64,000 nucleotides of DNA from a bacterium. GTDB taxonomy: Bacteria > Acidobacteriota > Blastocatellia > HR10. Position numbers and translations under genes: made by a program. The notes below the pieces were generated by a model. It made no database searches. It worked only from the letters and a program-made list of their open reading frames with translations, and was not told where the DNA came from. The stretch spans positions 32,001 to 96,000 of the forward strand of contig JBEPZV010000002.1 of NCBI GenBank assembly GCA_041640655.1. Reading direction: 5' to 3'. The first letter of the stretch is position 1. Each line of letters starts with the position of its first letter. Positions 1 to 43,875 of the stretch are shown piece after piece.

Positions 1-263
1 AAATCCGGCAGCCGACTCGCCACGGGAACCGGACCGATCGCCTCCCGCACATCCTCTCCGGTGAAGACCGCGATCACGCCGGGCGCCCGCCGCGCCGCCT
101 CCACGTTGATCCCCTTCAATCGGGCATGCGCATATATGCTCCGCACGATCGCCGCATAGACCATCCGCGGTCGGACAATATCATCCACATACTGCGACCG
201 CCCGGTGATCAATCGCTGATCCTCCACCCGAGGCACGCGCTCACCCACGAACTGCTTCGCCAT
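1..263 (-). CDS. Xanthine dehydrogenase/aerobic CO dehydrogenase family molybdopterin-binding large subunit, 5' part (runs off window)
   Basis: Own translation from ATG at 263: MAKQFVGERVPRVEDQRLITGRSQYVDDI...RSIYAHARLKGINVEAARRAPGVIAVFTGED, a typical CoxL/XdhA N-terminus; lies directly after coxS. Confidence 0.85.
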   Translation of the reverse strand, partial: MAKQFVGERVPRVEDQRLITGRSQYVDDIVRPRMVYAAIVRSIYAHARLKGINVEAARRAPGVIAVFTGEDVREAIGPVPVASRLPD

Positions 264-25416: not shown

Positions 25417-26103
25417 TCATCCCGTGGCCAGGCGATCCCAGTCCTTCCGCTCAAGAAGTCGAACCATGAGGAAATGGAGACCGAGGACCAAGAGAACAGC
25501 GATCCCATGACCAACTACGATGAAGGACCACCGTTCGGAGAGCCGGGCGAGCGGCATGAGCTCATTGGGATAAAAGAACGCCAGAAACACGCCGCTGTAC
25601 CAGATCACGACGATGATGATCCCAGCGAGGCGATAATCGAGCCAGAGATATAAGAACAGCGCCAACTGCGTCAAAAGCACCATCACAATGGGAATCCACC
25701 TCGCGAGGGCAGTTCCAAATGACCCAAGCACATCCATCTCGTGATCCTCTTGCAACGAGAGCACCAGCGACCGAGCGACGACGACCACCGCCCCCAAGAG
25801 CAACAGCATGCTGAGCGCGACCACCTCCTTTGCGATAGCAAGATGATGTGCGCTCAACGGAAGGAGCCGAAGCAAGAACAATGTGCGCTTGGCCTTTTCC
25901 ATCCCGATGAGCCAGTACGCGATGAACATCGGGAAGAGGAACGCCACGGGAAGCAAAGCCAGCGAGAGCGTAGGGACGACTCCACCGGGTCCCAGGAGAA
26001 GAGGCAGAAGCTGAGATGTTGCGATCACCACCAGGAAGCCTAGCAGATGGGTCGCATGCTCTCGGAAGTCCTTCTTCACCAATGCCCAGATGGATGCCCT
26101 CAC
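25417..26103 (-). CDS. ABC-2 type transporter permease
   Basis: WALVKKDFRE start, EKAKRTLFLLRLLP motif, about 6 TM segments; overlaps the ATPase stop. Confidence 0.82.
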   Translation of the reverse strand: MRASIWALVKKDFREHATHLLGFLVVIATSQLLPLLLGPGGVVPTLSLALLPVAFLFPMFIAYWLIGMEKAKRTLFLLRLLPLSAHHLAIAKEVVALSMLLLLGAVVVVARSLVLSLQEDHEMDVLGSFGTALARWIPIVMVLLTQLALFLYLWLDYRLAGIIIVVIWYSGVFLAFFYPNELMPLARLSERWSFIVVGHGIAVLLVLGLHFLMVRLLERKDWDRLATG

Positions 26104-26969
26104 GCCAGCCCCAGGAACAGCTCATGCAAGGTCGGCGCCCGCACGTCGAGGACGGCGATCCCGCGAGCGGTCAATTCAGCGACAAGCCCTTCTGATTCCT
26201 GACGGCGACAGAGAAGGCGCACCGAACCGTCGCGCCCTCGAATCACAGGGAAAGCACTCCATTGCTGAGCGCTCGTCCAGGAGGCCACGGACAGAATCCT
26301 CCACTCCCTCTCCAGGTCACCCAAAGACGCATGTGTCACCACTTCGCCATGACGAATGATCACAATCTCGTCAGCTACAGCCACAACATCTTCAAGGATA
26401 TGCGAGCTGATTAAAACCGCTCGTCCCGCTTCGGGAGCGATCGCGTCCTCCCGCAGCCACTGCAAAAAGTCGGCCCGCGCGATCGGATCGAGCCCCGCCA
26501 TGGGCTCGTCCAGAAGGAGCAAGATAGGCCGATACGCCAACGCGGCGATCAATGCGAGTCCGACCCGCATGCCATGCGAGAGCTCGCGAATTTGCTTATG
26601 GGGATCGAGACGAAAGCGTTCAAGGAGCCGCTGACAATATGCGTCATCCCAGGTCGGATAGTGAGCAGCGATGAATCTCAGGAACTGCTCGACGCGCATC
26701 CAGTCGTACAACGGATGCGATTCGGCGACATATCCCACCGATCGTCGCCACGCCACCTCACCATACTCCCGCTCGACGCCCTGAAACCGGATGCTCCCCC
26801 GATCGCGCGGAATCACTCCAAGGGCACATTTGATCAACGTCGTCTTCCCCGCTCCGTTGCGTCCCAAAAGGGCAGTAACGGTCCCCCTTTTGAGGGTCAA
26901 GCTCACATCCCTCAGGGTGAACCCGGGATACGACTTCCACAAGTGCCGAATCTCCAATACCGGCACCAT
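26100..26969 (-). CDS. ABC transporter ATP-binding protein
   Basis: GRNGAGKTT, LSHGMR, LLLDEP, SSH. Confidence 0.93.
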   Translation of the reverse strand: MVPVLEIRHLWKSYPGFTLRDVSLTLKRGTVTALLGRNGAGKTTLIKCALGVIPRDRGSIRFQGVEREYGEVAWRRSVGYVAESHPLYDWMRVEQFLRFIAAHYPTWDDAYCQRLLERFRLDPHKQIRELSHGMRVGLALIAALAYRPILLLLDEPMAGLDPIARADFLQWLREDAIAPEAGRAVLISSHILEDVVAVADEIVIIRHGEVVTHASLGDLEREWRILSVASWTSAQQWSAFPVIRGRDGSVRLLCRRQESEGLVAELTARGIAVLDVRAPTLHELFLGLA

Positions 26970-27120
26970 CTCGCCCACCTCACCTTCACGCTCTCTCGTG
27001 CGACCCTCGGCTCGAAAGCTCACCGCGCTCGATGAGGAAGCCCCCTACACATACTCGGTGGAGCTCCTTTCTCAGGCGTCCCTCATCGTTCCTCAGTGCC
27101 ACGCATCACGCCCTCTGCCG

Positions 27121-27852
27121 CTACCGCACGGACTCCACCTCAGGCGGAGGAGCGAAGAGCGACAGAGGAAGATCACCTCCCATCGTGACTTTCGTCGTGA
27201 GGATCGTGATCTTACTCTCGCGCTCCATGGAAGGAGGCGTCGGGATCGCCGTGCTCTCGATCTTCCATGGGATCGCATCAGGAATGCCGATCCACAACCG
27301 CATGCGCACATCATACAGACTCAAGACCGCCGCCTCGAACACGTAACAGGGGATGCGCTCGCCCGTTCTCGTTTCGACATCTTCCTGCCCACGAAGCACG
27401 ATCTCGCGAACGATGGGGGCCGTGGGCGGAGTCAAAACCACGGCGCTTCCCATCGGCACAGGGATGAGGAGCCCAATCCATGAGTCGAACCATAACGGGC
27501 GTTGTGCATTCACCGGTCGTTTGTACCCCCGACTTCGCTCCGGATATTGGGTGACGTGCCACACCCACTGACCATCGGAAAGGATAAGCTTAGGGAACTC
27601 CCCTCGCAGCTCGAACCGGAAGAGATTCGGCCGTTTAAAGGCGGCCCAGAATTCTCGCTCCGTCCGCCGAATCATCCCCTCATACCGGGTCTCGCTGACG
27701 ACGAGCCCTTCCAGTTGCACTTCGGCGATCTGCTGCCGCCGCGCTTCGATCTCTTGGATCAGCCTTTCGGGAGCCCCTTGGCCCCAAGCGTGTCCCCAGA
27801 GAAATCCGAGCTGGAATATCACAACCCCTACTGCCCCACCTCTCCGCAACAT
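27121..27852 (-). CDS. Exported LolA-fold (lipoprotein carrier-like) protein
   Basis: Signal peptide ending HAWG/Q; FKRPNLFRFE...LILSDGQWVW and terminal FAPPP typical of the LolA superfamily. Confidence 0.72.
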   Translation of the reverse strand: MLRRGGAVGVVIFQLGFLWGHAWGQGAPERLIQEIEARRQQIAEVQLEGLVVSETRYEGMIRRTEREFWAAFKRPNLFRFELRGEFPKLILSDGQWVWHVTQYPERSRGYKRPVNAQRPLWFDSWIGLLIPVPMGSAVVLTPPTAPIVREIVLRGQEDVETRTGERIPCYVFEAAVLSLYDVRMRLWIGIPDAIPWKIESTAIPTPPSMERESKITILTTKVTMGGDLPLSLFAPPPEVESVR

Positions 27853-27907
27853 AGTCCCCTCCTCTCCGGTGCCAAGGCTCCTCTCACAACGAGCCTTGGA
27901 AGTCGTA

Positions 27908-27936
27908 AATATGAGCTGTTCGGCATATGCCGTCAA
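27908..27936 (-). promoter_or_regulatory. Possible internal promoter for the LolA-like/ABC genes
   Basis: TTGACG-N17-CATATT, followed by hairpin CCAAGGCTC-N10-GAGCCTTGG (27872-27899). Confidence 0.4.
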
Positions 27937-28001
27937 GAGAACGCATCCTCAGACGCTCCAGGCATGAGATGAGAAACGTCTCGGACTGCCCGTCCTCATC
28001 C

Positions 28002-28307
28002 TCATCTGTTATTATTCGGGCCCTCACACCACTCCTCAACACACTGATCCTGGCACCTCTCTAAATCGGAGCGAATACGGCTGCACTCTGCATTGAAAAA
28101 CACCGAGAAGACAGCAATGGCCGCAGCGATACATCCGGCGATCGCGAGCAGATTCCCTGCGCCGCAGCAGGCAGCGATTGCGGTGGAAAGACCTGCCCCC
28201 ACATAGTTCCTCAGGGTCGCATAGGAACTCTCAGCAAACTCGCGACAGCGACTCAAACAATCGGATCTGCCTTTCTCATTCATCAATCGCGAACTCGCAA
28301 GACACAT
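28002..28307 (-). CDS. Cys-rich bacteriocin-like peptide (possibly the C-terminal half of a frameshifted gene)
   Basis: 10 Cys in 101 aa, CxxxC motifs flanking a Gly/Ala-rich hydrophobic core. Confidence 0.6.
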   Translation of the reverse strand: MCLASSRLMNEKGRSDCLSRCREFAESSYATLRNYVGAGLSTAIAACCGAGNLLAIAGCIAAAIAVFSVFFNAECSRIRSDLERCQDQCVEEWCEGPNNNR

Positions 28308-28536
28308 ATAAGGTAGAGACGTCGCAATCGAAAAGGCCGGGATCGAGTCCTGGCTCAGAACACACTTCTTCCGAATGAACGATAATCCCGCCTTGGGCGT
28401 TCGGCGTACGCTTCAGCAGGCTCGCGACACGTTCGCTTTCGCCTCCTGCTGGAAGGGTTTTTGCCGAGGTAACGCACGCAGCTATTAGGGCGAGTCCAAC
28501 AGCCGCCCCTCTGAGAGCCCTCATTCTCCCGGTCAT
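28276..28536 (-). CDS. Small exported/lipoprotein-like ORF (possibly the N-terminal half of the same gene)
   Basis: RBS GAGGAGG before ATG 28536; basic n-region, hydrophobic h-region, lipobox-like IAAC. Confidence 0.6.
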   Translation of the reverse strand: MTGRMRALRGAAVGLALIAACVTSAKTLPAGGESERVASLLKRTPNAQGGIIVHSEEVCSEPGLDPGLFDCDVSTLYVSCEFAIDE

Positions 28537-28579
28537 GTGAGCCCTCCTCGCCTCAATATCCCACTTCATGGCGGCCTTG

Positions 28580-28612
28580 AGTATAGTGTCTGTCTGTCTG
28601 TCTGTCTGTCAA
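28580..28612 (-). promoter_or_regulatory. sigma70 promoter with microsatellite spacer (candidate phase-variable)
   Basis: TTGACA (28612-28607), 21 nt, TATACT (28585-28580). Confidence 0.75.
28587..28610. repeat. Tetranucleotide microsatellite (TGTC)6
   Basis: Six perfect TGTC units read directly. Confidence 0.97.
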
Positions 28613-28847
28613 GCCTTTTTTCGCGCGCTCGCGCGAGGGGTCGGTCGCGCGCCACATGGACCGAAAGAGCCGACGACCGGCATGGCCCTGGCGGGAATCG
28701 AGCACGTGACGACATGCGGTGGCGAGCAGGGAGGAATCGCCGCCCTGGTTTGGGAGCTGCTCACGGGGAGACGCGTCGAGTTCGACGATGGCCGTGCCAC
28801 AGGTTCGGGACGCTCCCCCCTGCGAGGTGACGCGCGGCCTTCGCCGC

Positions 28848-29513
28848 CTATGGCGCGTGGGCGTAGGCCGTGGGGTCGAGGAGACCGGCTTGCGCGAAGG
28901 CCTGCTGGCGCTCGGCGCATTTACTGCACCGACCGCAGTGGTGGTGACCGATGGGAGAGATGCAGGAGAAGGTCAAGTCCAGTGGGAGATGACGACCTCG
29001 CCGGATGATCTCATATTTCGAGAGCCCCCGATAGGGGGCCAGGATCGCGATCGGATGAGCCAGGCCTTGGCTCACCGTCTGCGCCATGAGAGCGAGAAAT
29101 GAAGGCGTCGCATCGGGAAAGGGATTCCCCTCGAGCAGTCCGATGGCGATGGTCGAGATGCCGCGCAGAGCGCAGAAGACGGCCGCCTTCGCCAAGAGGA
29201 TGAGATTGCGCCCCGGGAGATAGACCGAATCCCAGGCCGCCTCTCGCTCGGGGACACCATCTCCGGTCACGCTCCAATGTCTCCCGTAGATGTCCTCCAT
29301 CGGAAGCGTCATGATGGTGAGCGGCTCAAGTCGCGCATCGCGCAGACGATTGAGGAACTGCCGCAACCAATGGAGCTCGACTTCCTCCCATTGAAGCCCG
29401 CTCCGAACATAGACCGGGAAGACGCGCGCGTACCGCGGCAGCAGCTCGGCGACAAGGACCGCGCTATCCAGTCCCCCGCTGGTGAGGACGCACACAGCTG
29501 CGGATTCGCTCAT
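28848..29513 (-). CDS. queC: 7-cyano-7-deazaguanine synthase
   Basis: SGGLDS, YLPGRN, FPDAT, TFSC...HCGRCSKCAER. Confidence 0.88.
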   Translation of the reverse strand: MSESAAVCVLTSGGLDSAVLVAELLPRYARVFPVYVRSGLQWEEVELHWLRQFLNRLRDARLEPLTIMTLPMEDIYGRHWSVTGDGVPEREAAWDSVYLPGRNLILLAKAAVFCALRGISTIAIGLLEGNPFPDATPSFLALMAQTVSQGLAHPIAILAPYRGLSKYEIIRRGRHLPLDLTFSCISPIGHHHCGRCSKCAERQQAFAQAGLLDPTAYAHAP

Positions 29514-43344: not shown

Positions 43345-43875
43345 TCAGGGACGGCGTTGAGCAAGAGCAGCCATCAGCTCAGTGTGGCGCCGATCCATCT
43401 CGCGGAGATAAGTGAGCAGCTCCTCGTGCCGCCGCTCGCCGTCTTCGTGAATGGTGCGCATCGTCTCGTGAATCGCCCGTATCGTCTCTTGAGTCGCCCA
43501 CATCGTCTCCTGAAGCGCCCGCGTGGTCTCCTGAGTCCCTCGCATCATCTCCTGAATCGCTCGCGTCGTCTCCTGACTCGCCTGCATCGTCCCCTGAAGC
43601 GCGCGTATCGTCTCCTGGGTCCCTCGCATCATCTCCTGGATCGCTCGCGTCGTCTCCTGATTCCCTTGCATTGTCACCTGAAGCGCGCGTATCGTCTCCT
43701 GGGTCCCTCGCATCATCTCCTGGATCGCCCGCGTCGTCTCGTGCGCGGCCTGAACGTCCTGGCGAATGGACTCAATGAGCGCCCGCGTGGCCCGCCCATT
43801 GTAAAACACCCCGTACAGCGTCAGTGCCAGCCCTAAAGCCGACGCCATCACCCCGGCCAGTCCGACAAGCTCCAT
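43345..43875 (-). CDS. Membrane-anchored coiled-coil tandem-repeat protein
   Basis: N-terminal TM helix, 7 x 14-aa repeats, RBS and upstream TTGACG-N18-TAGCAT. Confidence 0.78.
   Translation of the reverse strand: MELVGLAGVMASALGLALTLYGVFYNGRATRALIESIRQDVQAAHETTRAIQEMMRGTQETIRALQVTMQGNQETTRAIQEMMRGTQETIRALQGTMQASQETTRAIQEMMRGTQETTRALQETMWATQETIRAIHETMRTIHEDGERRHEELLTYLREMDRRHTELMAALAQRRP
43447..43740. repeat. Intragenic tandem repeat, about 7 x 42 bp with 84-bp higher-order period
   Basis: Alternating units encoding ETTRAIQEMMRGTQ and ETIRALQxTMQxxQ. Confidence 0.9.

Follow-up and report, generated by a model that had tools for sequence, protein, structure and literature searches.

The window analyzed here is a stretch of 64,000 nucleotides (nt) from the Acidobacteriota genome G000 (3,125,879 bases in 128 contigs, 63.7% G+C), in which it spans positions C2:32001-96000. 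Its minus strand carries the consensus −35 hexamer TTGACA (28612..28607), a 21-nt spacer with the sequence GACAGACAGACAGACAGACAC (28606..28586) and the −10 hexamer TATACT (28585..28580). A 43-nt 5′ leader (28579..28537), which starts caaGGCCGCC after the −10 hexamer, separates these elements from an ATG start codon (28536..28534) with the Shine-Dalgarno sequence GAGGAGGG (28549..28542) ahead of it. The preliminary description of this DNA had listed both hexamers, the spacer length and the 43-nt distance to the ATG at 28536, and every one of these details proved to be exact. The spacer consists of five GACA units and a C, and the GACA of the −35 hexamer is at the same time the first unit of a perfect (GACA)6 microsatellite (28587..28610, minus strand; TGTC on the plus strand), the length-variable part of the locus. 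The removal of one unit leaves a spacer of 17 nt. Tandem Repeats Finder reported the array with a period of 4, 6.0 copies and 100% matches; among the 32 rows obtained for the window at a minimum score of 30, it was the sole perfect tetranucleotide array, in agreement with the earlier remark that no comparable simple sequence repeat occurs elsewhere in the window. A perfect short tandem repeat thus separates the −35 from the −10 hexamer ahead of a gene, which is the architecture of a phase-variable promoter.

The core elements are flanked by further features of the same strand. An A6 tract (28616..28621) and the trinucleotide GGC (28613..28615) adjoin the −35 hexamer and belong to the family signature AnAAAnGGGC described below. 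An A-tract followed by RNR ahead of a −35 hexamer resembles, and may serve as, an UP-element-like proximal subsite. The sequence GGCCGCC (28570..28576) lies 4 to 10 nt past the −10 hexamer and corresponds to the family consensus tnnGGCCGnC; we take this G+C-rich stretch, which resembles a discriminator, to represent the discriminator and start region. Because each unit ends in GACA, a −35-like hexamer, CAGACA (28603..28608), is located inside the array at a distance of 17 nt from the −10 hexamer, as it would be in any array of at least six units. CAGACA matches the −35 consensus at 4/6 positions, and the combination CAGACA-17 nt-TATACT scored 9/12 in a consensus promoter scan. The six-unit state therefore keeps a −35-like hexamer at the optimal distance, and since CAGACA sits there, “low” is a more likely reading of this state than “OFF,” both of which the preliminary description had considered. 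An Rfam search of positions 27800-29000 returned a sub-threshold chance match and nothing else.

The ATG at 28536 opens a reading frame of 86 amino acids (aa) plus stop (28276..28536, minus strand), which encodes a signal-peptide-like N terminus and four cysteines. A second open reading frame (ORF) of 101 aa in another frame (28002..28307, minus strand) encodes a hydrophobic, Cys-rich segment. The two ORFs correspond to the N-terminal and C-terminal halves of a protein (P0001) that is encoded by a single 180-aa ORF in the related genome G002. P0001 begins with a signal-like sequence, contains 12 cysteines and is hydrophobic in a segment of its C-terminal part. Alignment of the two loci (L016 and L017, respectively) showed that the window gene is split by a TGA (28276-28278) in place of TTA and by an 8-nt deletion shortly after. 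An ATG overlaps the stop codon between the two ORFs, which makes a translation restart conceivable, and the split gene may be either a pseudogene or a two-piece gene. An upstream ATG at 28569 is thrown out of frame by one extra C in relatives, which identifies 28536 as the conserved start. Directly downstream of the split gene, the minus strand (25417-27936) encodes a secreted protein with weak similarity to LolA, whose Pfam E value of 8e-4 missed the cut-off, together with an ABC ATPase and a permease of the ABC-2 type, and the promoter scan placed promoter-like sites between these genes. The three genes may constitute a module that exports the cysteine-rich protein or confers immunity to it. 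Elsewhere in the window, a coding-looking sequence at 43440-43743 contains a tandem repeat with nested periods of 21/42/84 nt (3.4 copies of 84 nt, 89% matches).

GACA arrays of the genome are confined to a promoter context

A simple-repeat census of G000 revealed four tetranucleotide arrays of at least four copies. All four consisted of GACA/TGTC units, and all four were embedded in the sequence GGC-TTGACA(GACA)n-G/C-TATACT. Arrays of (GACA)3 or longer were likewise found within a TTGACA...TATAMT context in 10 of 10 cases, and a search of the whole genome found no GACA arrays outside the promoter context. Given that all GACA arrays share one promoter context, the placement of (GACA)6 is not a matter of chance. 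According to the same census, G000 is not generally rich in simple repeats and its other repeat classes are not expanded. Since the genome also has three genes with a MutS domain and one for MutL, we rejected the loss of mismatch repair as the cause of repeat instability.

The spacing of ordinary promoters was examined by counting pairs of an exact TTGACA and a TATAAT-like hexamer with at most one mismatch. Such pairs occurred 15, 22 and 14 times in G000 at spacers of 16, 17 and 18 bp, respectively, and 0 to 5 times at each of the other spacers between 3 and 35 bp. The earlier statement that other promoters have spacers of 16-18 bp, made for the window, thus extends to the whole genome. Most of the off-peak entries at spacers of 5, 9, 13, 21 and 29 bp belonged to the GACA family. 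Judged from these sequence statistics, the spacer optimum of this organism is narrow, at 16-18 bp, and the canonical spacing of the generic promoters implies that the GACA promoters of G000 are out of register.

The GACA promoters form a family with a common signature

A genome search for TTGACA(GACA)n promoters, as suggested in the preliminary description, uncovered 12 more loci in G000. All 13 loci were defined by a relaxed pattern consisting of TTGACA(GACA)k, one base and a TAnnnT-like hexamer, and they share the architecture A-tract-GGGC-TTGACA(GACA)n-G-TATAMT. An exact TTGACA is present at 12 of the 13 loci, the remaining one being a paralogue with TGGACA and a degenerate −10 hexamer. The arrays comprise two units at three loci, three units at six, four units at two, six units at the window locus and eight units at one, with spacers of 5, 9, 13, 21 and 29 nt. 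A start codon with a Shine-Dalgarno motif follows 23 to 88 nt downstream of each locus. The paralogue with TGGACA (C66:6088-6106, minus strand; paralogous to C59:99) has TAGACT as its −10 hexamer, contains three GACA units and precedes an intact-looking 77-aa ORF; it is possibly a decaying member of the family.

To define the signature, 53 family representatives were aligned on their hexamers and compared with 51 generic TTGACA-16..18-TATAAT promoters of G000. Directly before TTGACA, the family carries the element AnAAAnGGGC, with A-rich columns at −10 to −6 and G/G/G/C at −4 to −1. The base between the array and the −10 hexamer was G in 50 of the 53 representatives and C in the others, and the −10 hexamer itself was TATACT in 27, TATAAT in 22 and another sequence in 4. 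Downstream follows tnnGGCCGnC, which often extends to GTCAAG, an inverted copy of CTTGAC. The flanking elements AnAAAnGGGC and tnnGGCCGnC were absent from the 51 generic promoters, although GGCCGTC nonetheless follows some generic promoters with a 17-bp spacer. Outside a core of approximately 55 nt, the flanks of separate loci are unrelated; what the loci retain in common are the two hexamers, the A-tract and the GGCCG element. We also considered a repressor palindrome formed by the downstream GGCCGTCAAG and the upstream CTTGAC. This idea was weakened because GGCCGTC follows generic 17-bp promoters and because the distance between the half-sites would shift with the number of units, and it is retained only within the regulator hypothesis discussed below. 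Two interrupted arrays were encountered, one in another genus of the family (L134, genome G007) and one at G005:C88:2790-2817; their impurities are a GACG in one unit and a missing G.

Beyond G000, more GACA promoters were present in its closest relatives. The exact three-unit motif was found in 5 of 61 related genomes: G000 itself and 4 of the 6 remaining members of its genus. None of the 54 genomes outside the genus had it. A gapped pattern yielded 9, 9, 8, 4, 1, 1, 0 and 1 matches in eight genomes of the family, and the sole match outside the genus was an interrupted array. A scan of 185,579 species genomes produced 66 matches, 21 of which were pure arrays with a −10 hexamer. These were contributed by records of “Bacterium HR08” (7), “Bacterium HR10” (8) and a record titled uncultured Clostridia (3), with one each from an Acidobacteriota MAG, a Blastocatellia MAG and a Candidatus Lindowbacteria MAG. 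The last of these (L045, MFPR01000020.1) contains one promoter-like site of the form A8-GCC-TTGACA(GACA)6-G-TATAGT, with seven units, in another phylum; independent origin, transfer or a binning error may account for it.

The number of GACA units varies between strains

The preliminary description had anticipated variable repeat numbers in relatives and metagenomes. In the orthologous locus of G002 (L017), which is 95% identical to the window over 1.4 kb and has TATGCT as its −10 hexamer, the array also comprises six units. A metagenome scan returned 42 loci, 37 of them with pure arrays, and recovered the window locus twice, once with six units (L102) and once with five (L104), the latter corresponding to the predicted 17-bp spacer. 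The locus therefore exists with six units (window, G002 and L102) as well as with five (L104), so that its unit number is not invariant, invariance being the outcome that had been named as speaking against a switch.

We further compared the contigs of four public runs (X1 to X4, Logan contigs) over positions 28000-29200, with the stretch 28581-28640 masked; no RNA run was among those listed for this DNA. Contigs of X2, X3 and X4, which come from three other studies, span the repeat with 917, 997 and 613 letters for 921, 1001 and 617 reference positions, respectively. Each thus has a net loss of exactly 4 letters, and no insertion or deletion was listed outside the masked stretch. X2, X3 and X4 probably carry five units, the missing 4 letters presumably falling within the repeat; at the site of the gene split, the contig of X3 is identical to the window. 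In X1, the probable source run, the repeat is where two contigs stop, one leaving 36 and the other 54 letters unaligned, with an overlap of approximately 30 letters. These ends fit a branch in the assembly graph, at which the alleles themselves are not visible in the contigs.

In total, 72 instances from all sources were pooled, using a regular expression that demands uninterrupted GACA units and therefore cannot detect impurity. Sixteen groups of loci defined by their flanks had at least two members, and in 11 of the 16 the members differed in unit number. One locus occurred with 3/4/5/6 units and 0-1 differences in 90 flanking nt, and entirely identical flanks were associated with 4 vs 5 units in one case and with 3 vs 5 units in another. 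Further groups comprised 8/8/10/10, 2/6/6, 3 vs 7, 3 vs 8, 4/7/9 and 3 vs 9 units. Sixteen cross-source pairs had no more than one difference in 90 flanking nt, and 10 of them differed in unit number. The number of units thus changes between strains while the flanks stay nearly identical, as in phase variation.

The pooled distribution comprised 2 instances with two units, 31 with three, 14 with four, 5 with five, 8 with six, 5 with seven, 3 with eight, 2 with nine and 2 with ten, the two-unit class being under-counted because such arrays were searched in G000 only. The distribution falls smoothly from its mode at three units (31/72), which corresponds to a 9-bp spacer, and shows no peak at five; selection for the 17-bp state is therefore not visible. 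The five-unit arrays were found at five different loci in four different record sets, all of them metagenome records. One record set had both the window locus and a peptide gene at five units, and each of the three other sets had a different locus in this state, so that each set would have a different locus “on.” No five-unit array was present at the 13 loci of G000 or in the seven related whole genomes searched. We entertained the idea that the 17-bp state is avoided, based on 0 of approximately 33 whole-genome instances, and rejected it, as 5 of the 37 pure metagenome arrays have five units.

Genes downstream of the GACA promoters mostly encode small cysteine-rich proteins

Behind 33 promoter instances in G000 to G007, 29 first ORFs were picked by rule, and 21 of the 29 encode at least four cysteines. 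Many of the 29 are just 66-150 aa long, and most start with a hydrophobic segment that resembles a signal peptide. Neither the window-locus protein nor 12 proteins of other family loci (the first genes, plus the next genes where the first is tiny) had a match in Pfam or NCBIfam. When 5.8 billion proteins were searched with P0001, the matches were confined to P0001 itself, whose cluster has 6 members, and a single short fragment; the ESM Atlas offered no lead on this protein.

One 70-aa peptide has exactly the same mature part in G000, where its promoter has two units, and in G005, where the promoter has three. This identity implies that genes behind short arrays are presumably expressed somehow, be it by basal −10 activity, by occasional expansion of the array or by an unseen factor. 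In two pairs of orthologous loci from G000 and G002 (C54:5578 and L157; C32:12832 and L136), conservation covers the upstream flank, the 5′ leader and the signal peptide, while the mature cysteine-rich part is unrelated or diverges abruptly. This pattern suggests either cassette-like replacement or very fast evolution of the mature parts.

A proposed model of promoter switching by slipped-strand mispairing

On the basis of the architecture and the variation described above, we consider it rather probable that the GACA promoters constitute a genus-wide set of slipped-strand promoter-spacer switches in which the copy number would affect transcription. In this model, the (GACA)6 tract would be the length-variable spacer of a sigma-70-type promoter, one of approximately 13 alike in G000. 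Replication slippage would add or remove GACA units and thereby shift the consensus −35 hexamer, together with the upstream A-tract, in 4-bp steps relative to the consensus-like −10 hexamer. Transcription is predicted to be maximal at five units, because only then are the −35 hexamer and the A-tract placed 17 bp from the −10 hexamer, as in ordinary promoters, giving a near-perfect promoter. With six or more units, the weaker internal CAGACA would stay at 17 bp and a low level of transcription is predicted; this is the state of the window. With four or fewer units, no −35-like hexamer would be correctly placed, and only basal, −10-driven activity is expected. Each locus would drift independently, and populations would consequently carry differing combinations of loci in register. 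Cells would in this way possess a repertoire of small, secreted, cysteine-rich orphan proteins that changes stochastically, is inherited and can revert; its biological role and the rate of switching are inferences. That different loci are found at five units in different record sets is the pattern that an independently switching repertoire would produce.

Several observations count against the model. The smooth distribution of unit numbers lacks an excess at five, and the five-unit arrays were confined to metagenome records. The most frequent array has three units, two steps from the 17-bp state, and the genes located there are intact. An array of three units is too short to slip fast, and the commonest state is without explanation if the promoters are switches. 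The window locus has six units in both G000 and G002 despite 5% divergence. The gene behind the window promoter is split by a stop codon and an 8-nt deletion, and the contig of X3, which probably has five units, matches the window there.

In one alternative, which we regard as unlikely, the array serves to bind a protein or has an architectural function, and its three-unit form is native and functional. The sequence GGGC-TTGACAGACAGACAG beside the −10 hexamer would be read by an activator or repressor specific to the lineage, or else by a holoenzyme of an unusual kind, longer arrays would be slippage variants that weaken or abolish control, and a distance of 17 bp would have no special meaning. 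Such a regulator would explain why three units are the mode and why five units are not in excess. It is also consistent with the conservation of three units between species at several loci (one group reads 3/3/3/3) and with the genes behind two- and three-unit promoters, which are intact and, in at least one case, under strong purifying selection. Moreover, AnAAAnGGGC and tnnGGCCGnC with its frequent extension to GTCAAG, both missing from the 51 generic promoters, look as a dedicated regulator site would. However, the conserved letters are the exact consensus −35 and −10 hexamers of the promoters of G000 itself, which the regulator hypothesis has to attribute to coincidence, and the downstream GGCCGTC also follows some generic 17-bp promoters. 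The putative site, at −27 to −13, falls inside the footprint of RNA polymerase, where no activators are known to act except for those of the MerR type, which bind palindromes in 19- to 20-bp spacers. Finally, no candidate regulator was identified.

Improbable in our view is a neutral polymorphism, in which the promoter works mainly through its −10 hexamer or through upstream read-through, TTGACA is irrelevant and the number of units drifts with no effect on expression. Mutation bias alone could generate the smooth, monotonic distribution of copy numbers, and the split of the window gene suggests relaxed selection at this locus. Yet TT and GGGC before the array and TAnnnT one base after it are kept at dozens of loci with unrelated flanks, and an exact TTGACA starts 71 of the 72 instances, the exception being the TGGACA paralogue of G000 with its degenerate −10 hexamer. 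The units are pure at dozens of loci, although the regular expression accepted uninterrupted arrays only, and GACA arrays occur nowhere else in G000. All the sequences are short-read assemblies or metagenome bins and the contigs of the source run break at the repeat, but we judge it very improbable that the differences in copy number are assembly or sequencing artifacts: the arrays measure 8-40 nt and are well within read length, three runs from three studies agree on the state lacking 4 letters, differing counts recur with identical flanks, and identical counts were repeated in independent assemblies (10 units in two records, 8 units in G000 and one record, 4 units at one locus in four sources), which makes an artifact unlikely.

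Comparison with known phase-variable promoters

Returning to slippage-driven switching of the spacer, the control of transcription by repeats in promoter spacers is established, with the poly-G tract of porA, the TA repeat of hifA/hifB and cases from Bordetella and Mycoplasma as examples (PMC3899988). The closest parallel in that account is the hifA/hifB fimbrial promoter of Haemophilus influenzae, in which (TA)n lies between the −35 and −10 hexamers (van Ham et al. 1993, summarized in PMC3899988). In both systems, a simple repeat forms the −35/−10 spacer and slippage changes the spacing, the effect on initiation being a prediction for the GACA promoters; in the same summary, one or two repeat numbers alone give good spacing at hifA/hifB. 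The hifA/hifB repeat, as outlined there, is a dinucleotide that moves in 2-bp steps at one locus with divergent genes in a host-restricted pathogen (PMC3899988), whereas the GACA family has a tetranucleotide that moves in 4-bp steps, occupies approximately a dozen loci per genome and has one unit inside the −35 hexamer. The 4-bp steps would put neighboring states far off the optimum, and because the unit is part of the −35 hexamer, longer arrays would regenerate a weak −35 hexamer at 17 bp.

Homopolymers serve as promoter spacers in Neisseria meningitidis porA (poly-G), Bordetella pertussis fimbriae and Mycoplasma hyorhinis vlp, according to PMC3899988. As in the GACA family, a slippery tract sets the length of the promoter spacer, and the result in these species is graded or on/off expression of surface proteins. 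These systems differ in that their tracts are homopolymers changing in 1-bp steps, with no tetranucleotide among them, that the repeat lies outside the −35 hexamer and that the organisms are pathogens or commensals. A tetranucleotide repeat, TAAA, in the promoter region tunes the expression of N. meningitidis nadA (PMC3899988), and a poly-T tract acts as a “rheostat” in the promoter region of Helicobacter pylori sabA (PMC4081817). Both repeats are placed upstream of the core promoter and act through the spacing of regulator sites or through DNA shape, unlike the GACA repeat, which lies between −35 and −10.

The search of the full-text literature, whose coverage lay outside subscription journals, found no description of a tetranucleotide switch in a −35/−10 spacer or of phase variation in Acidobacteria. 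What is new here would be the tetranucleotide unit, its fusion with the −35 hexamer, the presence of approximately a dozen loci per genome and the free-living thermophilic host, while spacer switching itself was already known. The multiplicity of loci has precedents. In M. hyorhinis, several vlp genes each have their own tract, and in Neisseria, about a dozen paralogous opa loci have one short repeat in common and switch independently of one another, with the result that a changing subset is expressed. The opa repeat, CTCTT, lies inside the coding region and acts by frameshift, in contrast to the GACA repeat in the promoter.

By extension, we tentatively suggest, as a proposal that could well prove wrong, that free-living hot-spring Acidobacteriota run a multilocus “promoter phasevariome.” Approximately a dozen promoters with one tetranucleotide repeat fused to the −35 hexamer would switch independently in and out of register, and populations would express different heritable and reversible subsets of fast-evolving, secreted, cysteine-rich mini-proteins, which are candidate bacteriocin-like or surface factors. 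Repeat-driven phase variation is mostly associated with pathogens that are adapted to a host and have small genomes; the same logic would here operate at approximately a dozen loci in a thermophile that is free-living and belongs to a little-studied phylum. If so, the GACA promoters would be the first contingency loci known from the phylum and from a thermophilic environmental bacterium, as well as a new design of spacer switch, with 4-bp steps and a self-regenerating weak −35 hexamer. The GACA system would mark the orphan secreted cysteine-rich proteins as a variable interface with competitors, phages or surfaces. Should the number of units control transcription, public hot-spring metagenomes would represent a natural experiment in which one strain background occurs with 3, 4, 5 or 6 units, and the family would also supply a compact series of “tuning knob” promoters from a thermostable host.

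Possible exchange of flanks and clustering of loci

A comparison of a metagenome locus (L096) with G000 (C59:3018-3034), and of several loci with the upstream flank tgcgccggccaccggcgcaaagaaacaggc, showed one and the same upstream flank joined through the array to differing downstream genes and, conversely, one gene preceded by differing upstream flanks across sources. These combinations hint that the loci have recombined in or close to their common promoter core. The promoters of the family were also found in clusters, with three of them in approximately 5 kb of one metagenome record and two in 3-5 kb on each of the G000 contigs C32 and C59.
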